Source of the DNA: Armatimonadetes bacterium CG2_30_59_28
GTDB taxonomy: Bacteria > Armatimonadota > Abditibacteriia > CG2-30-59-28
Reading direction: 5' to 3'
DNA length: 64,000 nt
Assembly (NCBI GenBank): GCA_001872605.1
Contig: MNXM01000153.1
Coordinates: forward strand, 5,100-69,099
Program-made: the position numbers and the translations under genes
The notes under the pieces: generated by a model
What the model saw: only the letters and a program-made list of their open reading frames with translations
Told to the model about the DNA's origin: nothing
Database searches by the model: none
Shown here: piece after piece, positions 101 to 38,380 of the stretch
Position numbering within the stretch: position 1 is the first letter of the stretch
Layout of the letters: each line of letters starts with the position of its first letter

Positions 101-1702
101 TCAAATCAAGAAACGCAACGCCAGCGTCGCCAGTCCGAGAAAAAAAAGAAATCCACAGCAGTCGGTTACGGTGGTGACAAAAATGGCCGATGCCAACGCA
201 GGGTCGACTCCAATGGCGCGCAGTCCGAGGGGAACAACGACGCCAGCGCCCGCGGCGCAAGTGAGGTTCAAGAGCATTGCCACGGCGATGATTGCGCCGA
301 GCAGGATGCTGCCCTGCCACAGCCACATCACAGCCCCCACGAGGAATCCGATGGCAAGACCATTCAGCGCTCCCACCCCCAGTTCCTTCCAAAAGGCGCG
401 CCACGCGCCGCGACGGTCGATCTCTCCCAGCGCCAGACCGCGTACCATGATGGTCAACGTCTGGGATCCTGCATTGCCTCCCTGCCCCGCAACGATGGGC
501 ATCATCACGGCAAGCACGGATAGACGGGCGATGGTGTTCTCAAAGAGACTGACCACCCCCGCCGCCAGCAGCGCCGTCAGCAGGTTTACGGTCAACCACG
601 TAATGCGTCGACGCGCCGACTGGAAAACCGGAGCGAATATCTGCTCCTGGTGTGGCAGACCGACCATCACGTTGGCGTCTTCGGCAGCCTCCTCCTCGAT
701 CACTTCCACCACGTCATCCACCCGAACAACACCCTCCAGCACGTTGTTGTCGTCGACCACAGGGAGCGCGAGATAGTGATATTTTCTGAAAAGTCGGGCC
801 GCTTCTTCCTGATCTTCATCCACCTTCACTCGCACCACGTCATCAAGCATCAAGTCTGCAATTGAGATGGTGGGCGAGGCGGTTACGAGACGATGGAGAG
901 GCACAACGCCCAGCAATTCTCCCCGGTCTCCGGTCACATAGAGGTAGTGTGGACTTTCGCTGTCCTCCGCCCACTGCCGGATCGCCTCAATGGCTTCTGC
1001 AACTGTGCGGTCCATCGTGAGCGCGAGGAACTCGATGCTCATCTGCCCGCCGATGGAGTCGTCGGGGTGGGACATCAGCTCCGCGATATCAGTTCGTTCG
1101 TCGGGATCGACCCGCGCAAGCATATCTGCAGCGGTGTCCTCGTCCATCTCCTGAAGGAGGTCGGCGGCCTCCCGGGGATTTACGACTTCGAGAATGTCCG
1201 CGGCTTTCTCCGGCGCCAGCGCTTCGAGGATGTCGGAGGCTTCATCCTCCCCCATCTCCTCCAACACATCCGCGGCAACATCCAGCGAAAACTGCCCCAG
1301 CAGTTCGGCGGCCCTGCTCGTAGGAACGATCTCCAGCACGTCCGCGATATCTTCGGGCGCCATGCCCTCCAAGAGATCGGCTGCCGTGCCGGGTGACATC
1401 GCAAGGAGAACATCTGAAGCGTGGTCGTCCTCCATCTCATCGAGAACGTCTGCCGCCGTTTCGTGCGGCAGGTCTTCGAGCATGTCACGCGCATGTTCCG
1501 GATGGACCTCCTCCAGAGCATCAGCGGCGGATTCCGCTTGCATGCTCTGAAACAGAATCGACGTATGATCCTGGAATGCGTCCAGAACGGAAATAAGATC
1601 CTCAACGGAACGATGAGACAACAAACCGGCGAGCCGTTCCGAGTTCTTCTCTGCCAACGCGGCCCGCACGTCGCCCAGCCACAGTTCTTGATTATCCATC
1701 AT
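101..1702 (-). CDS. mgtE: Magnesium transporter MgtE with expanded N-terminal acidic repeat domain
   Basis: MgtE_N-like helical repeats, CBS pair (YLYVTG...GVVPLHRL; KYHYLALPVVD), TM motifs MPIVAGQGGNAGSQ and VDPALASAIFVTTVTDCCG; GGAGG RBS before ATG at 1702. Confidence 0.93.
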   Translation of the reverse strand: MMDNQELWLGDVRAALAEKNSERLAGLLSHRSVEDLISVLDAFQDHTSILFQSMQAESAADALEEVHPEHARDMLEDLPHETAADVLDEMEDDHASDVLLAMSPGTAADLLEGMAPEDIADVLEIVPTSRAAELLGQFSLDVAADVLEEMGEDEASDILEALAPEKAADILEVVNPREAADLLQEMDEDTAADMLARVDPDERTDIAELMSHPDDSIGGQMSIEFLALTMDRTVAEAIEAIRQWAEDSESPHYLYVTGDRGELLGVVPLHRLVTASPTISIADLMLDDVVRVKVDEDQEEAARLFRKYHYLALPVVDDNNVLEGVVRVDDVVEVIEEEAAEDANVMVGLPHQEQIFAPVFQSARRRITWLTVNLLTALLAAGVVSLFENTIARLSVLAVMMPIVAGQGGNAGSQTLTIMVRGLALGEIDRRGAWRAFWKELGVGALNGLAIGFLVGAVMWLWQGSILLGAIIAVAMLLNLTCAAGAGVVVPLGLRAIGVDPALASAIFVTTVTDCCGFLFFLGLATLALRFLI

Positions 1703-1722
1703 TCCACCTCCAGTTCCCCACG

Positions 1723-2490
1723 TCACCCACGGCGGTCAGCGCCATGTCTGATTCCCTCAATCAATTCTCGCCGATACACCGGCGAGCACGCTAACAGAGG
1801 TCCGCCCGCTTTCCCGTCCAGTGATATCCGCGGAATGCCGTGCAAGTCAGTCACTTCCGCACCCGATTCCTGCAATATGCACAGGCCCGCTGCCACGTCC
1901 CAGATACTCCATCCCTCCAGGAGCGCTCCGACACACGTCCCGCGGGCCACATAGCACAGGTGGGCGGCGGTGCTGCCAAAACTACGCACTTTCTGAGGGA
2001 AGCTGAATGAGTACTCGGAGATGTAGGACGGAACGATAAAAATCTCTTCATCGTGCGAGCGTCTGTTTGCCGTAACTTTACATCGCTTCCCGTTGAAGTG
2101 TGCCCCTCGACGCTCAACCGCCCAATAGGTTTCCCGTATCTCCGGGAGATGCACCACCCCAAGAACCGGGATATTGTTCCGCAGGAGCCCCGCCGATACC
2201 CCCCAGTGCGGCAGCCCGGAAGCGTAGTTCACCGTCCCGTCGATGGGGTCGATGGCCCAACAGTATTCTGCCGTTCCCTTGTTGCCGCGTCGTCCCATTT
2301 CCTCGCCAACGATGTGGTGGTCGGGGCATGCGTCACGGATCCGGGAACGCAGCAGCGCCTCGACGGCCTTATCGGCTTCTGTTACCAGTGAACCGTCCAA
2401 CTTGGTGGACACGGCCACTTTCCCGCGTTGCGCCATAGCCAATTCTCCAGCCTCAACGGCCCAATCAACGGCTTGTTTGACATCGATCAT
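1723..2490 (-). CDS. Inositol monophosphatase (SuhB-like) family protein
   Basis: Motifs VTEAD, GEE, WAIDPIDGTVNY, SFGS, WDVAAG; ATG at 2490 chosen. Confidence 0.88.
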   Translation of the reverse strand: MIDVKQAVDWAVEAGELAMAQRGKVAVSTKLDGSLVTEADKAVEALLRSRIRDACPDHHIVGEEMGRRGNKGTAEYCWAIDPIDGTVNYASGLPHWGVSAGLLRNNIPVLGVVHLPEIRETYWAVERRGAHFNGKRCKVTANRRSHDEEIFIVPSYISEYSFSFPQKVRSFGSTAAHLCYVARGTCVGALLEGWSIWDVAAGLCILQESGAEVTDLHGIPRISLDGKAGGPLLACSPVYRRELIEGIRHGADRRG

Positions 2491-2816
2491 ATCGGGGTAC
2501 TCCTTCTGTGCGCGACCACCCACGTCAATACCTAAAACTAACTCACCCCGACCGGGCAGGCTGCCACCGAATCCAGAATAAGGCGCATACGCACGCGCGC
2601 GACCAGCGACGGTTATGAAGGCGCAGGGGGGCGCCTGCCAACCCGAAAAAACGATGGCGGCGCGAACGGCACGTATCAGTTATTCTACTGAATCCGGGTG
2701 CGATTTGGCAAATAGGATCGTGTCTGCGGGATTGATGGATCGGTCCCCACCCATTCCCTATTGCCCTCGATGCCGCTGGCAAGGTAAAGTATGCGGGTTA
2801 CACAATCCAACACAGG

Positions 2817-3722
2817 ATGGACACTCAGATGACAAACTACATCTTCCATTACGATTTAGAGAACGCAGAGATTTGCCCGAAGGCCGCCGTCGTGTTGCGC
2901 GAACTGCATGAAAAATTTCAGATTCCAGCCACCTTCTTCTGCCTTGGAAAGGTCCTTGAGCAACGCGGACCCGATCTCCTCAAGATTCTTGGAGATACGG
3001 ATTTGTTTGACATCCAGTCACACACCTACTCACACCAACTGCTGCGCGACAGCAAGATGCATGGTCCCGGCGTGTCGCTGGATGAATTGCGGAAGGAGGT
3101 CTCACTCGGGAAACGACTGGTGGAGGATGTGTTTCAGCGGGAGTGTATCGGCATCCGTTCCGGGTGCGGCTTCTACCGGGGACTTCAAGGCGAACCGGAA
3201 CGTCTCGCCATCGTTGTGGAGGAAGGTGCGAAGTACATCAGCACCGATCTGCGGGGACCCGCGGACTCCATTCCATCAGGTCTGGTGCAGGCGTACTGGT
3301 ATGACGAAGATGCTTCTCCCGGGTTGTTGGAGATGCCCGGGCATGGCTGGCATGACAACGTGCTGAAAATGGAGGAGTTCTACTGCCTGCTTTCGCCCTG
3401 GCCACGCTACGTCGAATGGGGCATTCCGCGACGTCCGGTGAAGAACCCCGAGGAGGAGTTCGAAGTACAAAAAATGTGGATCGATCACGCAGTGCAATTG
3501 GGGCTGGATTACGTGTCGCTCGTCTACCATCCGTGCTCAATCTTTCGCATGAGTCCCGACTGCCGCATCATCGAGCACATGATGCGGTATGTCACCGATC
3601 AAAGCATCCCCGCGACCACGTACACCCAACTCTACCGGCAGTATGCTGACTCACCCGCGAGCGTACCCGGGAGAAACGCCTGGACATGGGAATCCGAAAA
3701 ACAAACAGGCGACCTGTGGTAG
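2817..3722 (+). CDS. Polysaccharide deacetylase (NodB/CE4-like) family protein
   Basis: HYDLE, PATFF, IQSHTYSH and YHP motifs. Confidence 0.75.
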   Translation: MDTQMTNYIFHYDLENAEICPKAAVVLRELHEKFQIPATFFCLGKVLEQRGPDLLKILGDTDLFDIQSHTYSHQLLRDSKMHGPGVSLDELRKEVSLGKRLVEDVFQRECIGIRSGCGFYRGLQGEPERLAIVVEEGAKYISTDLRGPADSIPSGLVQAYWYDEDASPGLLEMPGHGWHDNVLKMEEFYCLLSPWPRYVEWGIPRRPVKNPEEEFEVQKMWIDHAVQLGLDYVSLVYHPCSIFRMSPDCRIIEHMMRYVTDQSIPATTYTQLYRQYADSPASVPGRNAWTWESEKQTGDLW

Positions 3723-3737
3723 AAGGGGGGTTACGCA

Positions 3738-4109
3738 ATGGACAAATCTGAAATGCTGGACCACTTGCTGACTCTTGCCGAACGGCTGGGAGTTGCGGTT
3801 CGCACCGGCCGCTACGAGGGCAAAGGGGGAATGGGGCTTGTGCGCGGTGAATGGGTGTTGCTCATCGACCGTTCGATGCCGGGAGAGTCACGCGTCGATT
3901 TACTGATCGATGAGTTGTGCCGCCTCGACTACGGCGATCAATACCTGCCTCCCATCATTCGCGACCTCCTCGACAAGGCCGCGGAGAGCATTGCTGAAGC
4001 CGAGCCACAGACACGGGAGAGCGGCATCGAGAGTGATAGGAGTCTCGCAGATGACTTGGCAACAGCGGAAGGAGAGGCGTATGACGTGCGCGGTGCAGAC
4101 GGGGATTGA
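3738..4109 (+). CDS. Hypothetical protein, weak resemblance to the IrrE/ImmA N-terminal fold without HExxH
   Basis: GAAGGGGG RBS, compact ORF whose end overlaps the next gene; LAERLGVAVR...VLLIDRSM...RVDLLIDEL. Confidence 0.5.
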   Translation: MDKSEMLDHLLTLAERLGVAVRTGRYEGKGGMGLVRGEWVLLIDRSMPGESRVDLLIDELCRLDYGDQYLPPIIRDLLDKAAESIAEAEPQTRESGIESDRSLADDLATAEGEAYDVRGADGD

Positions 4110-26790: not shown

Positions 26791-28127
26791 GTACGTCCAT
26801 GAGAAGGAGGAATTCTAACGTGCAACGTTTTGTGACCACCGTAGCGCAGGTCGCTGCCCTGATGCTGGGATGCCTGGGCGCGCGCGCGGCAGACACCGCC
26901 GGCCCAAGCCTCCTATGGCACCGCCAGACAGGTTACTGCCGACAGCCCGGCCTCGTCGATGTGAACGGCGACAATATCCTCGACCTGATCATCGCGTCCG
27001 ATAAGGGAACTGTGCAGGCCGTTTCCGGCAGCACCGGAGAACCTTACTGGGAGTTCAGGGCCAGCGGAGGCTTCGTATCGTCTCCGGCAGTGGCAGATCT
27101 CAACGCCGACGGAGTGCTGGACGTTGTGCTTTCCTGCTTGAATGGTAGTGTCTATGCGATTTCCGCGCGAGACGGTTCCGTGTTGTGGAGTTTCAAGGGC
27201 ATTGCCCCGTTCGTGGCGTCACCGGTTTTGGGCAACCTCAACCGCAGCGGTCCACCAGAAGTCGTCGTTGCCAGCCAAAATGGCGACATCTACGCTCTCA
27301 CCGGCGCGCGCGGGAAGGTCTACTGGATGTTCCGGGTTCCCGGTGGGGTGACCGCTTCTGCCGCGATTGGCGATGTCGATGGCGATGGGAAACCTGATGT
27401 TGCCGTGGCAACTTCTTCCGGCGCGCTGCTCGTTCTCAACGGGAAAGACGGCAATAAGCTTGACGAACGCTCCGTGGAGTATGCTCCACTCACTGCGCCC
27501 GTGCTTGCTGACATCAATAACGACAGGCGCGAAGACATCATCGTGGCTGCATCCTATGTTCACGCGTTCGGGTATGACGGACGACACTGGAAGAGGTTGT
27601 GGAGCTACAACCCGGAAGGTCCACGGGTCTCCGCCGATCCCGCCATCGGCGATGTCAACGGTGATGGACTCCTGGAAGTTGTCGTCTCCCTCAGCGACGG
27701 GAGCGTCGCATCGCTACGCCTGAAAGACGGTACACCATTGTGGAAGACCCGCCCACTGGAAACGGTCGGCTCGCAGTCGTCTCCGGTGGTTGGGATGCTC
27801 TCGGCAGTTGAGGCGACCGATGTCGTCATTGGAAGTCAATCCGGTGGACTGACATCCATATCGGGTTCTGATGGCGCGATCCGTTGGCAGACGTACCTCG
27901 GCGCCAGAACGGACGGGTCACCGATTGTGGCCGACTTCCAGGGCGATGGCACCTGGGAAGTCGGAATCTCCACGGAATCCGGCGAATTTTTCGTTCGCTC
28001 AACAGGCATTTCGGGGACGCTCTACTGGGCAAAGCCGCGTGGCGACTTGTACAACTCGGGGAATGCTCTCCACGCCTCCGCCTTCGCCCGGTCGATCTGT
28101 CCGCCCACTCGGAGGTCCAGCCGTTAA
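26787..28127 (+). CDS. FG-GAP/PQQ-like beta-propeller secreted protein
   Basis: Repeated SPAVADLNADG / IGDVDGDGKPDV / IGDVNGDGLLEV Ca-binding blades. Confidence 0.8.
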   Translation: MSTSMRRRNSNVQRFVTTVAQVAALMLGCLGARAADTAGPSLLWHRQTGYCRQPGLVDVNGDNILDLIIASDKGTVQAVSGSTGEPYWEFRASGGFVSSPAVADLNADGVLDVVLSCLNGSVYAISARDGSVLWSFKGIAPFVASPVLGNLNRSGPPEVVVASQNGDIYALTGARGKVYWMFRVPGGVTASAAIGDVDGDGKPDVAVATSSGALLVLNGKDGNKLDERSVEYAPLTAPVLADINNDRREDIIVAASYVHAFGYDGRHWKRLWSYNPEGPRVSADPAIGDVNGDGLLEVVVSLSDGSVASLRLKDGTPLWKTRPLETVGSQSSPVVGMLSAVEATDVVIGSQSGGLTSISGSDGAIRWQTYLGARTDGSPIVADFQGDGTWEVGISTESGEFFVRSTGISGTLYWAKPRGDLYNSGNALHASAFARSICPPTRRSSR

Positions 28128-28190
28128 GGTCAGCACGCGGTTACGACATGGGAATGTACGCAACCTGCGACATGAAATCGATGGAGAACA

Positions 28191-29222
28191 GTGTCCTTGC
28201 GCAGAAAACAGACTGATTCACATAACCCACAAAAGTCGACGGAACTTCCAGCACTGGTGGACGGCCATGCGGGCGACCCCAACGGCAACGGTGGAGATGC
28301 AGGACGTAAGACCTGCGAATTTAGCCACACCGCGCCTGATCCCAATCCACATTTCGCGGATACACAAGGGACAAAGGACGTTCTCTTCCTGGACTCCGGC
28401 ACCGGCGTTTATGATCAGTGGTCCCGCGAGCTCAGCAAACGTCCCTTGTTGTCACGCGAGGATGAAGTTCGGCTCGCCAAACTGGTGGAAGCAGGCGATG
28501 ACGACGCCCGCGCGCGCTTCATCGAGTCCAACCTCAAGCTTGTCGTGAGCATCGCCAAACGCTACCGTGGCTGTGGAGTACCCATGGAAGACCTCATTCA
28601 GGAAGGCAACCTTGGGCTGATCAAGGCGGTTGACCGTTTTGACTACCGCAAAGGGTGCCGTTTCAGCACATGCGCGGTAACGTGGATTGAGGGGCAGATT
28701 CGTCGAAGTATCGCGAACCTGAAACACAATATCCACCTGCCCTTGCGAGTGGTGGCTGAGCTGAGAAAGATCAACCGAGTGGTTGACACGCTCTCCCATC
28801 GTCTGGGACGTCAACCAAGCGCGGAGGAAATTGCGTCTACCTTGGAGGCCCCGGCGGAACACGTCAAGGACATGCTCTCCCTGCCCGCCGACGCAGTTTC
28901 ACTCGATGCAGCGCTCGATGAGGACTTAGACAAGTTCCTCGGCGACGTCATCGAGGATGCTGAGGCCGTGTTCCCCGATGACGCCTTGCTGGTGGAGCAG
29001 AACCGTCGTGAAATCAACGAAGCCGTGGCCAAGCTTCCGCCTCGCCACCAAACGGTCGTCAGAATGCGATACGGGTTGGGAGGCGAGAAGGAGCACACAC
29101 TTGAGGAGATCGGACAGAAGCTGAACCTCACCCGACAACGTGTCTGGCAGATCGAGACCGCCGCTCTGAAGAAGATTGAGTGTCTCGATTGCGACCACCT
29201 GCGCCAGTATCCCAACAATTGA
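28191..29222 (+). CDS. Sigma-70 family RNA polymerase sigma factor (RpoD/RpoS-like regions 1.2-4) with atypical region 2.3-2.4
   Basis: PLLSREDE, ESNLKLVVSIAKRY, DLIQEGNLGLIKAVDRFD, TLEEIGQKLNLTRQRVWQIE; start uncertain. Confidence 0.9.
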   Translation: MSLRRKQTDSHNPQKSTELPALVDGHAGDPNGNGGDAGRKTCEFSHTAPDPNPHFADTQGTKDVLFLDSGTGVYDQWSRELSKRPLLSREDEVRLAKLVEAGDDDARARFIESNLKLVVSIAKRYRGCGVPMEDLIQEGNLGLIKAVDRFDYRKGCRFSTCAVTWIEGQIRRSIANLKHNIHLPLRVVAELRKINRVVDTLSHRLGRQPSAEEIASTLEAPAEHVKDMLSLPADAVSLDAALDEDLDKFLGDVIEDAEAVFPDDALLVEQNRREINEAVAKLPPRHQTVVRMRYGLGGEKEHTLEEIGQKLNLTRQRVWQIETAALKKIECLDCDHLRQYPNN

Positions 29223-29296
29223 GAGCTTCTTACACGCCTCGTCTCCCGCGCATGGCCAACCGGCAAAGGCCTTTAGGCCACCGCGCCCTCGCACAC

Positions 29297-29325
29297 TTGA
29301 CGCTGCACCGACAAGTAATCAGAAT
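29297..29325 (+). promoter_or_regulatory. Possible sigma-70 promoter TTGACG-N17-CAGAAT for the Fe-S cluster genes
   Basis: Hexamers at 29297-29302 and 29320-29325. Confidence 0.4.
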
Positions 29326-29518
29326 GCGAATGAGTACCCATGACTCTACAGAAAATTTGGGCTATCCCCGCAGAACACGCGGAACCTTCAATACAGGTTG
29401 TTGGCTCGAAAGTGCTCCTCTCCTTCCGCGATTTCTGCGTATTCTGCGGGAGCTTTGATTTTTTCAGTGGACTCACCAATCCGTAACCAGGCCAACAGCA
29501 GAAAGCGAGCATTCACAC

Positions 29519-30613
29519 ATGTCACTTGAAGGAGAAAATACAAAGGAAGCCGTACTTCAGGCGCTATCGGAGATCACCGATCCGGCCTTTGACCAGAATA
29601 TCGTCGAACTTGATTACGTCCGCCACGTCCGAGCCTGCGGCGGGGTCGTGGCCTTTGATCTCGTATTGCCGACTCCCGCACATCCTCATCGAGCCATCCT
29701 TCAGGAAGCCGCCCGACAGCGGGTATCTGCTCTGCCCAGTGTGACACAGGTCAACGTGACGGTCGACGCCGAAGTGAGGAGCGCCACCCCAGGCCGGTCC
29801 GTTCCTTCCTCCGTCAAGAATATCATTGCTGTCGCCAGCGGCAAGGGCGGCGTGGGAAAATCTACCGTTGCAGCCAATCTCGCCCTCGCGCTTTCCCAAA
29901 CAGGGGCGCGGACGGGACTCATGGACGCCGACGTGTATGGTCCAAGCATTCCCATTCTGATGGGAGTTTCCCAACAACCGCAGATCTCCGCCTCGGAGAA
30001 GCTGCTTCCGCTCGTCAGCCACGGCGTAAAGCTCATGTCTATCGGCTTCCTGGCCGGCGACGGGGCTCCGGTCATCTGGAGGGGTCCCATGGTCAGCAAA
30101 CTCCTCCAGCAGTTTCTGAGTGACGTTGACTGGGGGGACCTCGACTACCTCGTGATTGACCTGCCACCTGGCACCGGCGACGCGCAACTGACGCTCTGCC
30201 AGACGGCAACGCTTTCCGGCGCGGTGGTTGTCACTACGCCACAGGAGGTAGCCCTCGAGGATGTGAACCGCGCGATCAACATGTTCGCGAAGGTGAATGT
30301 CCCTATCATTGGCATTGTGGAAAACATGAGCTATTTCGTTTGCAGGCATTGCGGGGAGCGTGAAGATATCTTTCTGCACGGCGGAGGACGCCGCGCGGCG
30401 GAATCGTTAGGAGTTCCCTTTCTCGGAGAAATTCCCATCGACCCACAGATATGTTCGGGAGGAGACAACGGCACTCCCATCGTCGTGCAGTATCCGGATT
30501 CGCCACAGTCGGTTGCCTTTTGCGGCATCGCCGCACAGGTAGCGGTCTCTCTAAGCCGCATGGCATCCGAAACTCCTGCGGAACCCGAGGACCTCCTGAG
30601 AGTGATCTCCTGA
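29519..30613 (+). CDS. mrp: Mrp/ApbC (NBP35-like) Fe-S carrier ATPase
   Basis: N-terminal DUF59-like domain, SGKGGVGKST, DADVYGPS, WRGPM, DLPPGTGD, CRHC. Confidence 0.93.
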   Translation: MSLEGENTKEAVLQALSEITDPAFDQNIVELDYVRHVRACGGVVAFDLVLPTPAHPHRAILQEAARQRVSALPSVTQVNVTVDAEVRSATPGRSVPSSVKNIIAVASGKGGVGKSTVAANLALALSQTGARTGLMDADVYGPSIPILMGVSQQPQISASEKLLPLVSHGVKLMSIGFLAGDGAPVIWRGPMVSKLLQQFLSDVDWGDLDYLVIDLPPGTGDAQLTLCQTATLSGAVVVTTPQEVALEDVNRAINMFAKVNVPIIGIVENMSYFVCRHCGEREDIFLHGGGRRAAESLGVPFLGEIPIDPQICSGGDNGTPIVVQYPDSPQSVAFCGIAAQVAVSLSRMASETPAEPEDLLRVIS

Positions 30614-30649
30614 AGCCACACTGCCCGAGCCTGACACGTGCGTGCAACC

Positions 30650-31858
30650 ATGACCTCACCGCCCAATCATCCCATCAGTTACCTCGACCACGCCGCAACC
30701 ACACCGATCGATCCGGCGGTGTTGCAGGCGATGCTTCCGTATCTGTCCAAGCAGTATGGCAATCCCAGCAGCATTTACCAGCTCGGCCGCGCCGCGCGGC
30801 AGGCCATCGAGGACAGCCGTGAGAGCATCGCCAGCTCCATCGGGTGCCGGCCCACGGAGGTCGTGTTCACCGGCAGCGGAACGGAGGCAGACAACCTTGC
30901 CATCAAGGGGATGGCCTGGGCACGATCGGAGCGAGGGAAGCACATCATCACTTCGTCTATTGAGCATCACGCCGTCCTCCACGCCTGTCAATCACTGAAA
31001 AAACGCGGATTCGAGGTGACGTATCTGCCCGTGGATCAGTATGGCATGGTCGATGTTGCCTCCGTCCACGCGGCGATTCGCCGAGACACGATCCTGATAT
31101 CCGTTATGCACGCCAACAACGAAATTGGCACACTGCAGCCCATTGAGGAGATCGGCGCGATTGCGCGTGAACACGATGTTCCGTTCCACACCGATGCGGT
31201 TCAGACATTTGGTCAGATCCCAACAAAGGTGAACGATATGGGGTGTTCCCTGATGAGCCTATCCGCTCACAAGATCTATGGTCCTAAAGGTGTCGGCGCA
31301 CTCTACGTTCGAAGAGGATGCCGACTCAGCCCTCTGCTGGACGGAGGAGGGCAGGAGAAGAACCGTCGGTCGGGGACGGAGAATGTCGCCGGCATTGTCG
31401 GCTTTGGCACGGCGGCAACACTCGCCTGCGAACGAATGAACGCAAACGAAGCCCAACGCATCCTCCTTCTGCGAACGAAGCTCGCTCAAGGGCTGGAGGC
31501 AAACATCCCGGATCTGCGCTTGAACGGCCATCCGGAGAAACGACTCCCGAACAACCTGAATTATTCCGTCCGTTTTCTCGAAGGTGAAGCGATGCTGTTG
31601 GGGCTGGACCTCCGAGGCATCTGCGCTTCCAGCGGATCTGCCTGCACATCGGGAAGCTTGGAACCCTCACACGTGCTCGCTGCCACACGCGTTTCGCGAG
31701 AGTGGGCGCGCGGAACCGTGCGATTCTCACTGGGGAAGGATAACACGGAGGCCGACATAGCCAGCGTGGTGGAGGTCTTCCCACCGATCATCAGCGAACT
31801 GCGCTCGCTGCAGACGCGCGGCAGAAAGAGAGACGACAGAGAGATCGTCGCATGGTAG
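30650..31858 (+). CDS. iscS: Cysteine desulfurase (IscS/NifS group I)
   Basis: YLDHAATT, GNPSS, HTDAVQ, SAHKIYGPKG, RSGTENV, SSGSACTS. Confidence 0.93.
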   Translation: MTSPPNHPISYLDHAATTPIDPAVLQAMLPYLSKQYGNPSSIYQLGRAARQAIEDSRESIASSIGCRPTEVVFTGSGTEADNLAIKGMAWARSERGKHIITSSIEHHAVLHACQSLKKRGFEVTYLPVDQYGMVDVASVHAAIRRDTILISVMHANNEIGTLQPIEEIGAIAREHDVPFHTDAVQTFGQIPTKVNDMGCSLMSLSAHKIYGPKGVGALYVRRGCRLSPLLDGGGQEKNRRSGTENVAGIVGFGTAATLACERMNANEAQRILLLRTKLAQGLEANIPDLRLNGHPEKRLPNNLNYSVRFLEGEAMLLGLDLRGICASSGSACTSGSLEPSHVLAATRVSREWARGTVRFSLGKDNTEADIASVVEVFPPIISELRSLQTRGRKRDDREIVAW

Positions 31859-31860
31859 AC

Positions 31861-31948
31861 TATACTCGTCACGGGTGAAAATACGCCTTGCCCCGAGCGT
31901 TCCGTTGTAGGGGATACAAGAGGTGGATTTCCACGGGCGACGAGTATA
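31861..31948. mobile_element. Small TIR element (MITE-like, 88 bp)
   Basis: Perfect 10-bp IR TATACTCGTC/GACGAGTATA extending imperfectly to 22 bp (18/22). Confidence 0.5.
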
Positions 31949-31993
31949 TACAGGCGCGTTCGTGCCGCGCCATAGTAGATTCCAGGAGGAGTG

Positions 31994-32593
31994 ATGGAAG
32001 AGACAACCGCAACCACCGAATTGTCCGCCACGGAAGCCGGAATGACCCTTATTGAGGAGCTGCCCGACGGCGGTCTATTCCTCGGAACGCTCGACACTGT
32101 CTTCAATTGGGCCCGGAAGTCGTCACTCTGGTACATGACCTTTGGGCTGGCCTGCTGTGCCATCGAGATGATGGCCACCGCTGCCTCGGACTTTGACTTC
32201 GATCGTTTCGGGATGATCCCGCGAGCCTCTCCCCGTCAGTCCGACCTCATGATCGTCTCAGGAACCGTCACTCTGAAGATGGCGACCCGAGTGAAGAAGC
32301 TCTATGACCAGATGCCTGAGCCGCGGTACGTTATCGCGATGGGAGCGTGCGCCACCTCCGGCGGCCCGTTTCGCGAAGCCTACAGTGTCCTTAATGGAGT
32401 CGACCGGGTGATCCCGGTGGATGTGTACGTGGCAGGTTGCCCGCCGCGCCCCGAGCAACTCCTCGATGGAGTGCTGCTTCTGCAGAAGAAGATTATGAGT
32501 CAGACGATGACCGCTCAACGCGGAGCGTCCCCTCTTGCGAAGCTGCTTTCCCGCAAGACCCAATGCAAGGCGTCGCCGCAAACGCAAGCATAG
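31994..32593 (+). CDS. nuoB: NADH-quinone oxidoreductase subunit B-like protein (orphan)
   Basis: [53 protein letters not shown]. Confidence 0.9.
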
Positions 32594-32629
32594 CCGACGC
32601 CTGGTGAACGCAAGGAGTGAACAATAACA

Positions 32630-32992
32630 ATGCTGACACTAACAGAAAAAGCTGCCGAGCATGTAAAAGGAATATTGGACAAACAGGATGGACCAGGCGC
32701 TGCCCTTCGCCTGTTCGTGAAAGGCGGAGGTTGTTCGGGATTGCAGTACGGCATGGCGATTGACCAACCCGGAGACGATGACAACGTATACGAGTTCTCC
32801 GGCGCCCGCGTGATGACCGACCATGACACCCTCCCCCTCATCGACGGTTCCGAGATCGACTATGAGGAGAATTTGATGGGAGGCGGGTTCAAGATATCGA
32901 ACCCGCAGGCGGTGCGTTCGTGTGGCTGTGGAACCTCTTTCCGTACCGCAGACACGAAGTCGGAAGGCGCGCCCTGCGGGTCACAGAATTAG
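32630..32992 (+). CDS. iscA: A-type Fe-S carrier (IscA/ErpA/HesB family)
   Basis: GGGCSGLQY, NPQAVRSCGCGTSF. Confidence 0.9.
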   Translation: MLTLTEKAAEHVKGILDKQDGPGAALRLFVKGGGCSGLQYGMAIDQPGDDDNVYEFSGARVMTDHDTLPLIDGSEIDYEENLMGGGFKISNPQAVRSCGCGTSFRTADTKSEGAPCGSQN

Positions 32993-33094
32993 GCGCTTGC
33001 AGTCGCAGTTCATTCGCTCCTGTTGGTGAGATTGAGCTCCCGGCCACAAGCCGTCAATCCATGTATCCACGTCGGCAAATGTCACAGTTACCAG

Positions 33095-33664
33095 ATGGCT
33101 GAACTCCAAATACGCTACCTCGGCGCCCCTGTTCTCCGCCGCAAAGCCAGGACTGTCGGAAGAATGACCTCCGACGAACAGAAGCTACTCGACGATATGG
33201 TCGACACCATGGTCGCGCGTGAGGGCATCGGTCTCGCGGCTCCGCAGGTGGGGATCGCAAAGCGGGCCATCGTAGCTCGACCGCCCGAGTGCGAGGTCAT
33301 CCAGCTCATCAATCCGGAGATTGTCGAGCGAACCGCGGAGACCGTTATCGGCACGGAAGGCTGTCTGAGCGTTCCCGGATTTCAGGGCGATGTCGAAAGG
33401 CATTTCGCGATTCGAGTGAAAGGAAAGGGCGCCGACGGCAAGCCCGTCGAGTTGGAGCTGCTGGACTTCCCTGCCCGTGTCATCCAACACGAGATTGACC
33501 ACCTTGATGGGAAACTCTTCATCGATCGAGCCATTCCCGATTCCCTGCAGTCAGTGGATTACGAAGACGACCCCGAGACCGGCGAAGAAACTGCCGTCCT
33601 GACACCGGTCACTTTGGAGGAGATCCGCCGCTTCTTCGCTCAACAAATGCGCACCTCCTCTTAG
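33095..33664 (+). CDS. def: Peptide deformylase
   Basis: GIGLAAPQVG, EGCLS, QHEIDHLDG. Confidence 0.95.
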   Translation: MAELQIRYLGAPVLRRKARTVGRMTSDEQKLLDDMVDTMVAREGIGLAAPQVGIAKRAIVARPPECEVIQLINPEIVERTAETVIGTEGCLSVPGFQGDVERHFAIRVKGKGADGKPVELELLDFPARVIQHEIDHLDGKLFIDRAIPDSLQSVDYEDDPETGEETAVLTPVTLEEIRRFFAQQMRTSS

Positions 33665-33694
33665 AGTGCCTATCAGTCACCGACATCCCTTGCC

Positions 33695-34555
33695 ATGCCA
33701 CTACTTGGAGCACACATGCCAACAGCCGGAGGGCTCTACCGCGCCGTCGAGCGCGGTGAAGCTATCGGCTGCGATGCCATCCAGATATTTACCCGTAATC
33801 CCAACCAGTGGGAGTCCAAGCCCCTGACCGACGCGGACATTCAGCGGTTTGCCGACGCGCTCGCGAAGTCCCGTGTCCGGGCCGTTGTTGCCCATGACGC
33901 TTATCTCATCAACCTCGCCGCTCCCGACCGAACCGTTCTCAAGAAATCCCTCATTGCCTTCCAGGACGAGATCGAGCGTTGCCACCTGCTTGGAATTCCG
34001 CACCTTGTCACCCACATGGGTTCACATATGGAGGCAGGAGAAGACAAAGGACTGCGACGCCTTTCCGACAGCATCGCGAAAGTCATCGGCAAGACGGCGA
34101 AGTCCTCCGTCCGCGTGCTCATCGAGACCACTGCCGGGCAGGGAACCGGGCTTGGTTACCGGTTCGAGCATTTGCGTACCGTCATGGACAACGTCAACCA
34201 GCCTGAACGACTCGGCGTGTGCCTGGACACCTGCCACATCTTCGCCGCCGGATACAACCTGCGCACACAATACGCCTACCGGAAGACCATGCGGAAGTTC
34301 GGCGAGATTGTCGGGGTTAACAATCTCTTTTGCATTCACGCCAACGACGCAAAGAAACTTTTCGGCAGCCGCGTCGACCGACACGCTCACATCGGTGAGG
34401 GCGAGATCGGCGCCGACGCGTTCCGCTTCCTCGTCAACGACCGCCGTTTCCGCAACACCCCTATCCTCCTCGAAACCCCCGAAGCGGAGGCAATGCACCC
34501 AGTGAACCTCCGCAAGCTGCGCGGGATGATTCGACGAACCCGCGGAACTGTATAG
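33695..34555 (+). CDS. nfo: Endonuclease IV
   Basis: LGAHM, QIF, HDAYLINLA, IETTAGQG, CLDTCHIFAAG, HANDA, DRHAHIGEG, LETP. Confidence 0.95.
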   Translation: MPLLGAHMPTAGGLYRAVERGEAIGCDAIQIFTRNPNQWESKPLTDADIQRFADALAKSRVRAVVAHDAYLINLAAPDRTVLKKSLIAFQDEIERCHLLGIPHLVTHMGSHMEAGEDKGLRRLSDSIAKVIGKTAKSSVRVLIETTAGQGTGLGYRFEHLRTVMDNVNQPERLGVCLDTCHIFAAGYNLRTQYAYRKTMRKFGEIVGVNNLFCIHANDAKKLFGSRVDRHAHIGEGEIGADAFRFLVNDRRFRNTPILLETPEAEAMHPVNLRKLRGMIRRTRGTV

Positions 34556-34610
34556 CGGAATGAACGGGTGATGGCGTTGCGGATGCGCGGGGAGAAAGTT
34601 CCCTCTACCC

Positions 34611-34759
34611 GTAACTGCTCAGCTACGATCGATTCACCGTGGAAAGACGCGGAAAGTACGCCGTTTCGCGTGTCACGTAACACTTCCGGCGTTGTTTCAG
34701 CGGAAACCAGGGCTATACATCCATGGTGGAAGAATCACATCACTGACCTGAGCAGTTAC
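34611..34759. mobile_element. MITE with 12-bp perfect TIR (GTAACTGCTCAG), 149 bp
   Basis: GTAACTGCTCAG at 34611-34622, CTGAGCAGTTAC at 34748-34759, CCC on both flanks. Confidence 0.7.
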
Positions 34760-34944
34760 CCCTGCCAATACAGCACCGTGCCGTAGATGATGGGGCACAT
34801 GCGTTCCCACGGCTGATCGGATACAAGCACCGCGTCGGGATACTTCTTCGGCTGGTGCCACACGCGGGAAACAAAGGTGGCGTCTTCGATCCACCGTTCA
34901 TCGAGGAAGAGCTGCGGGCAGGACGTGCCGGGGTTTTCGGACAT
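34756..34944 (-). pseudogene. 5' fragment of a beta-propeller glycosidase-like gene truncated by the MITE
   Basis: QLFLDERWIED...RVWHQPKKYPDAVLVSDQPWE...GTVLYWQG; stop TAA comes from the MITE TIR; no continuation beyond the MITE. Confidence 0.6.
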
Positions 34945-34999
34945 TACATTCGTTGCTCCCTTCGCTGGAGGCAGTTGTCACGCCGCAATGATAGCACAT

Positions 35000-35016
35000 C
35001 AAATCTGACTTGCACC
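35000..35016. mobile_element. Isolated TIR stub of MITE family A
   Basis: CAAATCTGACTTGCACC, identical to 17 nt of the family A terminus. Confidence 0.55.
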
Positions 35017-35175
35017 AAGCCAGCAGACTTGCATCTCCGACGTGCCGTATGAGACAATCCACCAGTGCTTCGCCGGTAACTGGGTGTTGTTGCCGAACTC
35101 GCGAAATTCGGGCGGACAGGCGCAACGACAATCAGGTGGTGATGCTCGCTATCCCGGGACAAAAGGAATTACCGT

Positions 35176-35544
35176 TTATTGACTTAGCTCACACGGGATT
35201 TACCTGAAGCATCGGAGGCACACCTGATTCTTCAGAATCAGGTTCCTGACACAGCGGAGGCACACCTGATTCTTCAGAATCAGGTTCCTGACACAGCGGA
35301 CTACGAACCGCCCTACCGCTGACCTCGCGCACCCTGACTTTCAAGTCTCGAACTCTGCGAGTTCGCGGGTTCCTGACACAATGGGCTGAGGACCGCTGCA
35401 AGAGCCAATTGTGTGAGCTACCGCCGGCTGACGCTCGGCGGTGTCTATGGACGACGCGGCAGGCTTCCCGTGTAGCCATTTGCATGAGTCTCCGCTGGCT
35501 GAAGCACAGCGGTGTCATGATAACCGTGTGAGCTAAGTCAATAA
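35176..35544. mobile_element. MITE with 21-bp perfect TIR (TTATTGACTTAGCTCACACGG), 369 bp
   Basis: IR at 35176-35196 and 35524-35544; no coding capacity; contains REP-like hairpins. Confidence 0.8.
35213..35300. repeat. Tandem duplication of a 42-bp hairpin unit
   Basis: CGGAGGCACACCTGATTCTTCAGAATCAGGTTCCTGACACAG x2; 10-bp perfect stem ACCTGATTCT/AGAATCAGGT. Confidence 0.9.
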
Positions 35545-35610
35545 GCATTATGACAAATAGCGAGGATAGATGCAAAACAGAAGGCGATGGATAAGACGGT
35601 AGCGCGCGGC

Positions 35611-36048
35611 TTAGTCCGAACCGTCCCCGAGCGGCGGACCCTCGACGGGAACTTCCTCCACCTGCATCTCCAGGAATCGGTTACACTTGGGACACGCCGC
35701 TGGCTGGCCTTTCTCTATGTCGGGATGCGACGGGCAGAAGTAGATGTCCTCCGTGCCACTGGGGACATCGGCGACGAGGTACTTGCCGCATTCCGGGCAC
35801 TTTCCTGGATCGATGCTCAGTACCTGCGAATGCCTGAGACACCTTTACTTAATGCGATCCAATTCAGGATCGGGCTTGGCCTTACTGTTCGCAGGCTCAT
35901 CTTGCGCTATTGGCGTTGGATTCCGTTGGATGGAAGGTGGAGTGCGAGATGCGTCGCCGCCGGTCTCTCCAGGTCGCGACGCGCATCCGTTTATCAAGAG
36001 ACCTGCGCCGCACAGCGCGAGCGTCGCAAACAAATGCCCGTGGATCAT
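35611..36048 (-). pseudogene. Heavy-metal-binding-domain (HMBD x2) lipoprotein with one in-frame TAA
   Basis: Lipobox INGC; after TAA (35845-35847) the frame continues RCLRHSQVLSIDPGKCPECGKYL...YFCPSHPDIEKGQPAACPKCNRFLE to TAA at 35611. Confidence 0.8.
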
Positions 36049-36049
36049 C

Positions 36050-38380
36050 CTACAAGCGTGTCTCCTTCAGCCGCAGTGCGTTGGAGATGACGGAAACCGA
36101 GCTGAATGTCATCGCCGCCGCGGCGATCATCGGGCTCAGAAGCAGCCCTGATAAAGGATAGAGCACTCCGGCCGCAATGGGAATACCGAGACCATTATAC
36201 AGCAACGCGAAGAACAGGTTCTGCCGAATGTTCCGCATGGTGGCTTTGCTCAGCCGGCGCGCCCGAACAATCCCCCGCAAGTCGCCCTTGACGAGCGTCA
36301 CGCTTGCGCTCTCCACGGCCACATCGGTGCCGCTCCCCATCGCGATACCCACGTGTGCCTGGGCCAGGGCGGGAGCGTCATTGATACCGTCACCGGCCAT
36401 GGCCACGGTGTGCCCGTCGGACTGAAGTCGTTTGATAATACTGCCCTTGTCCTCCGGCAGAACCCCCGCCTCCACTTCGTCAATCCCCAATTGGCTGGCA
36501 ACCGCCTGCGCAGTGGCCAAGTTATCGCCAGTCACCATGATCAGCCTGATACCGTCGGCGCGCAGATCACGAATTGCTTCAAGCGTTGTCTCTTTGATGG
36601 GATCGGAGACGCCGAAAACTCCGGCAAGTTGTCCGTCCACAGCAACGAACATCACGGTCTGCGCCTGCGCTCGCAGTTCGGCGCTTTTCCGTGCTCCAAG
36701 TTCAGTGTCCACGGCGAATTCGTTCATCAATGCTTGGTTCCCGATCGCGACCTCTCGACCGTCCACCTTGCCGGTAACCCCCTTGCCGGTGGTCGAGGCA
36801 AATTCTTCCGCAGGAGTCACTGGGACGCCTCGATCGTGCGCTCCTGCGACCATCGAGGCCGCGAGGGGATGCTCGCTGTTTTGTTCGAGGCTTGCGGCAA
36901 CACGGAGCAGCTCCGATTCGTCCATACTGCCGCAAGTGTAGATTGAGGTGAGTCTCGGTCTGCCTTCCGTCAGAGTGCCCGTCTTATCGGCGACCAGAGT
37001 GTCAACCCGTTCCATCACTTCGAGAGCTTCTGCGTTTCGGATGAGCACTCCCACGCTCGCGCCGCGTCCGGTTCCCACCATGATGGACATCGGGGTCGCC
37101 AACCCCAGCGCGCACGGACAGGCGATGATGAGCACAGCTACCGCATTGACCAGCGCGTAGGCCAACCGAGGTTCGGGACCGAAGATACTCCAGAGAAGAA
37201 AAGTGGCGGCGGCAACACCCACCACGATGGGCACGAAGTAGCCTGCAACCACATCGGCGACGTGTTGAATGGGGGCGCGGCTGCGCTGCGCCTCGTTGAC
37301 CATCTTCACGATGCGCGCGAGCAGCGTGTCACTGCCGACACGTTCCGCCTGCATGATAAAGCTGCCGGTTCCGTTCACCGTCCCGCCCGTCACCTTGTCT
37401 CCGGCTGCCTTTCCAACGGGCAGTGGCTCTCCCGTAATCATCGACTCATCCACCGGACTCCTGCCGTCAACCACGCTCCCATCGACGGGCACTTTCTCTC
37501 CGGGGCGCACGCGGAGCCGGTCACCAACCTGCACCTCTTCCAGTGGCACATCCACTTCGGCCCCCGCTTGGGCGACGCGGCGCGCGGTGCTGGGCGCCAG
37601 TCCCAGCAGAGCCTTGATGGCGCTGCTGGTCCGGCTGCGGGCCCGCAACTCAAGTATCTGCCCGAGCAATACCAGAGTGACGATCACCGCGGCGGCCTCA
37701 AAGTAGACAGCGACCTGACCTCCGTGACCGCGGAAGGACGCGGGGAAGATGTCCGGCGCCAGCGTCGCGATGGTACTGTAGACATACGCCGTTCCGGTCC
37801 CGATCCCGATGAGGGTGAACATATTCAGGTTTCGCGTCTGAATGGATCTCCATGCCCGCTGAAAGAATGGGAATCCTCCCCACAGCACCACCGGGGTCAC
37901 GAGAAGCAACTGAATCCAGTTCTTCGCTGTGTGGGACAACACTCTCCCCACCGGATCTCCGGGAATCATCGCGGCCATCGCCAGTGCAAACACCGGCACG
38001 GTGAAGACAATGGAGACCCGGAAGCGGCGCGTCATGTCCTCGAGTTCCGGGTTCGCCTCCTCAAGCACCACGGCCTGTGGCTCCAGCGCCATGCCGCACT
38101 TGGGGCATGTGCCCGGCCCCACTTGACTGACCCCCGGACACATCGGGCAGATGTAAGTTGCACCTTCGGACGTTTGCTGCGTCTTCTTCTCTTGTGGGAG
38201 GTATTCCTGCGGGTTTTGATTGAATTTCTCCAGGCAATGTCTGCTGCAGAAGTAGTATGGAGTCCCCTGGTAATCAAAAGAGCCGGCCGCCGACTCCGGC
38301 TCAACCTTCATCCCGCAGACTGGGTCTATTCGGCCGCCATTGGTCTCTCCGCCCTTGTGATGACAACAACATTCCTCCAT
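36050..38380 (-). CDS. copA: Cu(I)-translocating P1B-1 ATPase with YHS and HMBD N-terminal domains
   Basis: DPVCGM...YYFCS..C (YHS), YICPMC...[42 protein letters not shown] and MTFSS. Confidence 0.95.

Follow-up and report, generated by a model that had tools for sequence, protein, structure and literature searches.

In cyanobacteria, the genes of complex I are split into ndhC-K-J and ndhA-I-G-E blocks. A passage of PMC4758237 also mentions a 'split' nuo operon in Bdellovibrio. Eleven-subunit enzymes without NuoEFG (nuoABCDHIJKLMN) are known, for example in Desulfitobacterium (PMC11238625), and their evolution is treated in PMC3144371. Assembly of the Fe-S clusters of complex I in mitochondria requires Ind1/NUBPL, a factor of the Mrp/NBP35 family (PMC6196649, PMC7980591); bacterial ApbC is a general carrier, acting for example in ThiC/ThiH maturation in Salmonella (PMC8593673). 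In the literature on Armatimonadota nuoB, detached nuoB/nuoI and Mrp-NuoB links, we found no published description of nuoB inserted in an Fe-S biogenesis operon. Here we describe such an arrangement in an Armatimonadota MAG (89.8% complete, 344 contigs). Similarly to the split nuo organisations, complex I genes are spread over several loci in this genome and the enzyme would still be complete; unlike them, the detached gene is inserted inside an Fe-S biogenesis operon.

The window, i.e. the whole 64,000-nucleotide stretch that was analysed, carries a co-oriented gene cluster (Table 1). The initial annotation had recognised mrp, iscS, nuoB and iscA as consecutive genes, and all four proved to be real, intact and encoded on the + strand. 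They are separated by gaps of 24 nt (mrp-iscS), 132 nt (iscS-nuoB) and 36 nt (nuoB-iscA), and the likely ATG of nuoB, at position 31994, is preceded by AGGAGG. Upstream of the cluster, at 297 nt from mrp, lies a conserved sigma-70 gene: it is syntenic in a genome of the same family (G001), in a genome of another family (G003) and on two metagenome contigs (L193 and L195). Synteny extends to nfo at these four loci and to def in G001 and L193. An Rfam search of positions 27000-36000 (E up to 0.1) returned no known RNA element. A motif scan gave near-chance numbers of promoter-like sites (4, with 2.2 expected) and terminator-like sites (9, with 6.9 expected). None of the + strand terminator-like sites separates mrp, iscS, nuoB or iscA from the next of these genes, which at such counts says nothing about how the operon is organised. 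Compared by eye, the iscS-nuoB spacers of four loci, ranging from 17 nt (L193) to ~190 nt, had no evident common motif.

Table 1. Genes of the conserved cluster and its upstream neighbour (window coordinates).
Gene or product	Position	Strand	Family matches and remarks
sigma-70 family factor gene	28191..29222	+	Pfam Sigma70 regions 1.2, 2, 3, 4
mrp/apbC (NBP35/Ind1-family P-loop Fe-S carrier, N-terminal DUF59-type domain)	29519..30613	+	PF10609 351 bits; PF01883 (FeS_assembly_P) 54 bits
NifS/IscS-type (class I) cysteine desulfurase	30638..31858	+	TIGR03402 FeS_nifS 548 bits; PF00266 281 bits
nuoB (Nqo6/PSST, N2 cluster subunit)	31991..32593	+	TIGR01957 236 bits
A-type Fe-S carrier (IscA/ErpA/SufA family)	32630..32992	+	TIGR00049 112 bits; PF01521
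def (peptide deformylase)	33023..33664	+	PF01327 159 bits; TIGR00079 153 bits; co-oriented downstream member
nfo (endonuclease IV)	33695..34555	+	TIGR00587 296 bits; last co-oriented gene of conserved cluster

The protein encoded between iscS and iscA belongs to the NuoB/Nqo6/PSST family. It matched the NuoB families over its full length (TIGR01957, cut-off 142.7 bits; NF005012, 251 bits with a cut-off of 116; PF01058, 105 bits with a cut-off of 27), scored higher against TIGR01957 than the NuoB encoded in a nuo operon of the same genome (236 versus 202 bits) and shared ~60% identity with subunits of solved PDB structures (Paracoccus NuoB, bovine NDUFS7). The four N2 cysteines noticed in the initial annotation (C55, C56, C120 and C150, including the tandem CC) are invariant in an alignment with operon-encoded copies and line up with those of solved NuoB/PSST. 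Two features set it apart from these homologues: its gene lies apart from every nuo cluster, between iscS and iscA, and its C terminus ends in a clade-specific tail of ~25 residues. In the NuoB tree, the isc-linked proteins formed one clade (support 97/88), nested among Armatimonadota NuoBs that are operon-encoded or paired with nuoI (98/88). The end branch of the window NuoB (0.21) was shorter than the tree median (0.30), indicating no accelerated divergence; G003 and its identical counterpart on L195, both within the clade, had a longer branch (0.65). Two further rows of the tree (G082_855 and G057_7042), with branches >3 and probably mis-extracted ORFs, were left out of account. The window NuoB is thus predicted to be an ordinary subunit of complex I that bears the N2 [4Fe-4S] cluster.

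The complex I partners of this NuoB lie elsewhere. In agreement with the initial annotation, nuoA, nuoC and nuoD are absent from the window, and tblastn found none on its whole contig. The assembly contains exactly two copies each of nuoA, B, C, D, H, I, J, K, L, M and N; since it is 89.8% complete and in 344 contigs, a gene may have escaped these counts. Set 1 falls into three pieces, nuoABCD on contig C186, nuo(F)GHI on C192 and nuoJKLMN on C16, and has its own nuoB and nuoI within these clusters; this answers whether the main nuo operon retains a nuoB. Set 2, on C44, reads nuoA-C-D-H-J-K-L-M-N-ndk, with neither nuoB nor nuoI and no adjacent nuoEFG. Because nuoA and nuoC are only 28 nt apart and nuoH overlaps nuoJ, C44 has no space for either missing gene. 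An orphan nuoI (TIGR01971, 116.5 bits) was found upstream of thiC on contig C185. The NuoB of another genome (G040), encoded there in a nuoA-B-C-D cluster, shares 71% identity with the window NuoB; the NuoA and NuoD of that cluster match the C44 proteins more strongly than those of C186. The window nuoB and the C185 nuoI beside thiC are therefore the presumptive missing parts of set 2. Similarly to the NuoEFG-less eleven-subunit enzymes, nuoD is directly followed by nuoH in set 2, without N-module genes; set 2 differs in having a nine-gene operon (nuoACDHJKLMN), with the Fe-S subunit genes B and I at separate loci. A hidden N-module for set 2 might be sought in the NuoF-like genes on C191 and C130, but these belong to large fused ORFs, beside NuoG-like or ferredoxin-like parts, and resemble soluble hydrogenase or formate dehydrogenase modules.

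Gene order in relatives indicated how the arrangement may have arisen. In a genome of the same class (G025), mrp, iscS and iscA are contiguous, with an iscS-iscA gap of 73 nt, and nuoA-B-C is intact; this layout is, by its gene order, the presumed state before nuoB moved. Since mrp-iscS-iscA is already contiguous there, mrp was in the operon before nuoB arrived. G001 shows both derived states, with sigma70-mrp-iscS-nuoB-iscA-def-nfo at one locus and nuoA adjoining nuoC at another. G003 has sigma70-iscS-nuoB-nfo and a single nuo set with the same detached layout: its nuo operon lacks nuoB and nuoI, a purM-like gene occupies the former nuoB position, and no nuoB other than the one beside iscS was found in the genome. 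Contigs L193 and L195 repeat both arrangements. The position of nuoB in the Fe-S operon is thus kept across at least two families, at 62-78% NuoB identity, and we predict a single relocation, in the common ancestor of a small clade of Armatimonadota, that was then retained through divergence at the family level. Simple operon fragmentation, with a sole nuoB in an unconserved position, had been named as the outcome that would refute the initial proposal. This condition was too narrow: a second nuoB exists and the adjacency is conserved, although the locus is still a product of operon fragmentation.

The neighbours of nuoB could be assigned to families with varying precision. The Mrp protein has a Walker A motif (GKGGVGKS) and a C-terminal CXXC motif (CRHC); its score against the ApbC equivalog model NF008669 was below the cut-off (333 versus 348 bits), and we therefore treat it as a family member and not as an ApbC equivalog. 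The desulfurase passed TIGR03402 (cut-off 530.75 bits) and failed the IscS equivalog (417 bits, cut-off 643); its SSGSAC catalytic loop and SAHK PLP lysine are present. The A-type carrier passed TIGR00049 (cut-off 58.8 bits), scored below the cut-offs of the IscA, SufA and ErpA equivalog models and retains three cysteines (GGGCSG and SCGCG). The cluster shares a class I cysteine desulfurase and an A-type carrier with the canonical ISC operon (iscRSUA-hscBA-fdx), from which it differs in lacking IscU and in having a desulfurase that scores as NifS-type. From the sigma-70 gene through mrp, iscS, nuoB, iscA and def to nfo, hscB/hscA, fdx and iscR were not seen in or around the cluster. The absence of iscU holds for the window, but a complete sufB-C-D-S-U cluster, overlooked when the window was read by itself, lies elsewhere in the genome; sufU, adjoining sufS on contig C141, gave the single NifU_N match of the assembly. 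De novo Fe-S assembly is probably carried out by this sufBCDSU system on the other contig.

Collectively, we consider it probable that the gene is the displaced complex I nuoB of set 2, lodged in a housekeeping operon (mrp-iscS-[nuoB]-iscA-def-nfo) that would couple it to cluster supply. For the specific form of this coupling the chances seem even: nuoB would share a transcript with the genes of the cysteine desulfurase and of two carriers, Mrp and the A-type protein, so that the output of apo-NuoB would be matched to the capacity for building and delivering its cluster, and the carriers encoded beside it would be the likely donors of N2. The iscS-nuoB spacer, 132 nt long here and variable among relatives, speaks against co-transcription. 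Co-regulated maturation of the N2 subunit, one of two readings offered initially, would be consistent with a genuine complex I NuoB whose location in the Fe-S operon is shared between families. As in the Ind1/NUBPL case, there is an Mrp-family P-loop protein bearing a CXXC motif, and its gene precedes that of the N2 subunit by two positions; the relation of Mrp to NuoB, unlike that of Ind1/NUBPL to complex I, is one of gene neighbourhood.

The displaced NuoB could also be genuine and its place in the Fe-S operon an accident of neutral shuffling, kept by inertia and devoid of regulatory or assembly meaning. We give this explanation some credence, short of thinking it likely. The nuo genes are widely scattered in the phylum, as illustrated by the three pieces of set 1; a family (f2) separates nuoAB from nuoC onward, and in G003 the purM-like gene fills the former nuoB site. 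In sister lineages and other Armatimonadota, the detached nuoB lies with nuoI (and thiC), as two nuoB copies in tandem or amid unrelated genes, which shows that NuoB does not need neighbouring isc genes to function; among ~200 sampled genomes of the phylum, the isc linkage is limited to one small clade. Against a neutral accident, the insertion splits two tightly linked operon genes and has survived the divergence between families described above. Two more independent detached nuoBs, from an unbiased sample of ~10 orphan nuoB lineages, also adjoin Fe-S genes: genome G212 has iscS-iscA-nuoB, with a NuoB of a different, unrelated clade and a nuoA-C-D operon without nuoB, and in Thermoflexibacter ruber an orphan nuoB is followed 73 nt downstream by an Nfu carrier gene. 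By a rough estimate, random placement among ~4000 genes would rarely give two such cases, which hint at possible selection for co-expression with cluster donors. Extending coupling to a recurrent, selected design is speculative and on balance doubtful; nuoB would leave the nuo operon and be captured by Fe-S biogenesis or carrier operons, Fe-S supply would gate the N2 subunit and the assembly of the quinone module, and the carriers encoded nearby, whether Mrp in the part of a bacterial Ind1, A-type or Nfu, would be dedicated N2 donors.

Two other explanations fared worse. The detached NuoB (and NuoI) could be isoforms interchangeable between the two complexes I, with separate transcription allowing them to be swapped, for example with iron or oxygen status. 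Two full sets do coexist, and the two Fe-S subunits are those transcribed apart from the rest, but set 1 already holds both genes in its clusters and G003 shows the detached layout with a single set. Furthermore, the two NuoBs (window and C186) are only 46% identical, and so each has probably evolved together with its own NuoD and NuoH. Overall, interchange seems very improbable. The other initial reading, in which a paralogue of NuoB would have been co-opted to act with IscS, Mrp and IscA as an Fe-S scaffold or carrier, independently of complex I, drew on the embedding of nuoB among Fe-S biogenesis genes in a window devoid of a U-type scaffold and is now barely credible, given a second nuo operon without its own nuoB, gene counts of exactly two per subunit, the sole copy in G003, the higher NuoB model score, the short branch nested among operon-encoded NuoBs and a genome that encodes sufBCDSU, with SufU, and therefore needs no new scaffold.

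Coupling of the displaced nuoB to Fe-S supply would bear on how N2 is inserted in bacterial complex I and on Mrp as a possible bacterial counterpart of Ind1/NUBPL, and an operon with the N2 subunit gene between desulfurase and carriers offers a concrete candidate donor-client set. A C44-type operon looks defective without nuoB and nuoI, yet nothing is missing when the scattered genes are taken into account, which corrects metabolic inference based on annotation. If the recurrent linkage between nuoB and Fe-S carriers were true, it would provide a simple regulatory principle tying respiration to iron status, which could be approached in a cultured strain, Thermoflexibacter ruber DSM 9560.

ORF listing and profile searches revealed a co-oriented run of seven genes on the + strand, from a sigma-70 factor through nfo, confirming the initial annotation, which had placed nuoB between iscS and iscA. 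The spacers between mrp, iscS, nuoB and iscA are 24, 132 and 36 nt, respectively, and the nuoB ATG at 31994 is closely preceded by AGGAGG. Further downstream, between nfo and a 776-residue ORF on the - strand (36050-38380), 2.1 copies of a 42-nt unit form a perfect tandem repeat (35213-35300). The ORF, with Cys-rich metal-binding segments at its N-terminus and the motifs DKTGTLT and CPC, looks like a copper or heavy-metal P-type ATPase.

Genes of the Fe-S/nuoB run in the window and of the set 2 nuo operon on contig C44
Location	Gene	Coordinates	Strand	Evidence
Window	sigma-70 family factor	28191-29222	+	Sigma70 regions 1.2, 2, 3, 4
Window	mrp/apbC	29519-30613	+	PF10609 351 bits; N-terminal FeS_assembly_P domain; GKGGVGKS, CRHC motifs
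Window	NifS-type class I cysteine desulfurase (iscS)	30638-31858	+	TIGR03402 548 bits; cut-off 531
Window	nuoB	31991-32593	+	TIGR01957 236 bits; cut-off 143
Window	A-type carrier (iscA)	32630-32992	+	TIGR00049 112 bits; cut-off 59
Window	def	33023-33664	+	PF01327, TIGR00079
Window	nfo	33695-34555	+	TIGR00587
C44	nuoA	255-626		ORF + Pfam
C44	nuoC	655-1284		ORF + Pfam
C44	nuoD	1286-2425		ORF + Pfam
C44	nuoH	2457-3515		ORF + Pfam
C44	nuoJ	3478-4020		ORF + Pfam
C44	nuoK, L, M, N	up to 9441		ORF + Pfam
C44	ndk	after nuoN		ORF + Pfam

The window belongs to contig C340 of a 5.49 Mb assembly (344 contigs), in which the NuoB family model matched two places, the window and C186. The C186 gene lies inside nuoA-B-C-D at the contig end, and its product is 46% identical to the window NuoB. 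A tblastn search of nuo proteins against the whole assembly revealed a third nuo locus on C44. Since its nuoA-nuoC spacer is just 28 nt and nuoH and nuoJ overlap, this operon contains neither nuoB nor nuoI. The NuoI model found two genes above cut-off, one on C192 after nuoG-nuoH (set 1) and an orphan on C185 (2168-2671) with thiC next downstream; nuoJKLMN of set 1 are on C16. Each of nuoA, B, C, D, H, I, J, K, L, M and N was present in exactly two copies in the 89.8%-complete assembly. C186, C192 and C16 (set 1), together with C44 and the orphan nuoB and nuoI (set 2), therefore provide two copies of each core subunit. Set 1 thus has its own nuoB and the set 2 operon does not; the orphan nuoB and nuoI are the genes that set 2 is missing. 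Two NuoF-like (Complex1_51K) domains (C191:5039-5554 and C130:4473-4988), found in large ORFs beside NuoG-like/ferredoxin-like parts, are probably diaphorase modules of soluble hydrogenases or formate dehydrogenases. Set 1 nuoF lacks its N-terminal part because of a contig break at the C192 end.

Related genomes indicated how this arrangement arose. In G025, from the same class, mrp-iscS-iscA is contiguous (iscS-iscA, 73 nt) and set 2 nuoA-B-C is intact. G001, from the same family, carries sigma70-mrp-iscS-nuoB-iscA-def-nfo, and its set 2 nuoA is followed directly by nuoC. G003, from another family, has sigma70-iscS-nuoB-nfo and a set 2 operon A-(purM-like)-C-D-H-J-K-L-M-N-ndk; no nuoB other than the iscS-linked one was detected in this 93%-complete genome. 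G025 represents the state before the move, G001 and G003 that after it. The same two layouts recur on two metagenome contigs (iscS-nuoB gap of 17 nt in L193). In G001, G003 and the metagenome contigs, conservation extends to the sigma-70 family gene upstream of the cluster, and the purM-like AIR synthase family gene of G003 (L174:3503-4603) fills the nuoA-nuoC slot. Other members of the phylum keep set 2 nuoB in the operon, in some cases with nuoI already gone (L194), or carry it paired with nuoI (nuoB-nuoI-thiC contiguous in G037, L119), in tandem nuoB-nuoB pairs, or alone among unrelated genes, indicating that Fe-S subunit genes left the set 2 operon repeatedly. The tandem orphan pairs of Armatimonadota family f18 (L201, L202, L203, L198, L199) lie away from other nuo genes; in the tree, one member of a pair groups with set 2-type and the other with set 1-like NuoBs.

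In a maximum-likelihood tree of 62 NuoBs, the iscS-linked proteins (window, G001, G003 and metagenome contigs) formed a single clade (support 97/88), far from C186-type NuoB. The insertion between iscS and iscA was a single event, in this one clade. The clade is nested within a larger one (98/88) of set 2-type NuoBs from Armatimonadota, which also includes the operon-encoded G025 and L194 copies, nuoB-nuoI pairs and other orphans. The terminal branch of the window NuoB is 0.21 (tree median 0.30); a longer branch (0.65) leads to the G003 NuoB and its identical counterpart on metagenome contig L195. The window NuoB shares 71% identity with that of the relative G040 (contig C9), encoded within a nuoA-B-C-D cluster whose NuoA and NuoD gave stronger hits to their C44 than to their C186 counterparts. 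It is ~60% identical to the solved Paracoccus NuoB and bovine NDUFS7, and C55, C56, C120 and C150 are invariant in the alignment of orphan and operon NuoBs. Judged by sequence, nothing suggests a change of function, and the gene would encode a genuine N2 subunit, an ordinary NuoB.

This agrees with one part of the co-regulated N2 maturation proposed initially; co-regulation itself is plausible. Placement in the operon may or may not tie the production of NuoB to the supply of Fe-S clusters and their delivery by Mrp and the A-type carrier, and we consider the two about equally probable. In favour of a functional link, nuoB is wedged inside the operon and kept at 62-78% NuoB identity. Among parallel loci, fetched solely by NuoB similarity, G212 has iscS-iscA-nuoB, with a different gene order and a NuoB from another well-supported clade, and a nuo operon without nuoB (nuoA-C-D-H-I-J-K-L). 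At L050:5962-6811 in Thermoflexibacter ruber DSM 9560, the gene of a stand-alone 77-residue NifU-like/Nfu carrier (PF01106, 92 bits) lies 73 nt downstream of an orphan nuoB. These are two of the ~10 other independent orphan lineages, a proportion that, by rough estimate, chance placement in ~4000-gene genomes would rarely give. Against such a link, sister lineages get by with nuoB in unrelated settings, the iscS-nuoB spacers are variable and share no conserved motif, and no known RNA element was detected at the cluster. At C185:2168-4217 (L139), the orphan nuoI is flanked upstream by the S-subunit gene of a type I restriction-modification system and immediately downstream by thiC (radical SAM). 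Because maturation of ThiC/ThiH in Salmonella is known to require ApbC/Mrp (PMC8593673), the detached nuoB and nuoI each lie beside Mrp or an Mrp client. In G212 (uncultured bacterium ERP108616_co2_8; L019:5424-11936, L232, L231), both nuoB copies are detached, one adjoining moaA and the other following iscS-iscA at a contig end, and a nuoC-nuoI pair is downstream of lipA.

The alternative, a NuoB paralogue recruited as scaffold or carrier, was rejected on gene counts, with set 2 lacking nuoB, on phylogeny and the ordinary NuoB sequence, on the relatives' loci, and on a complete sufB-sufC-sufD-sufS-sufU cluster (C141), which with a second IscS-like gene (C209) and Nfu/NfuA-like genes (C104, C220) leaves no need for a new scaffold in de novo cluster assembly.

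Split nuo operons are well known, as are NuoEFG-less enzymes of 11 subunits (PMC4758237, PMC3144371, PMC11238625). Mitochondrial complex I Fe-S assembly requires Ind1/NUBPL, of the Mrp family (PMC6196649, PMC7980591), and bacterial ApbC/Mrp is viewed as a general carrier, as in ThiC/ThiH maturation (PMC8593673). Our literature search found no description of an isc or suf operon with nuoB inside it. The arrangement, with an ordinary NuoB, is a previously undescribed form of split complex I organisation. Its significance rests mainly on a possible recurrent linkage of detached nuoB to Fe-S carrier genes, for which T. ruber DSM 9560, a type strain of the Bacteroidota available in culture, could serve as an experimental model, and on the testable hypothesis that Mrp and the A-type carrier may deliver N2.
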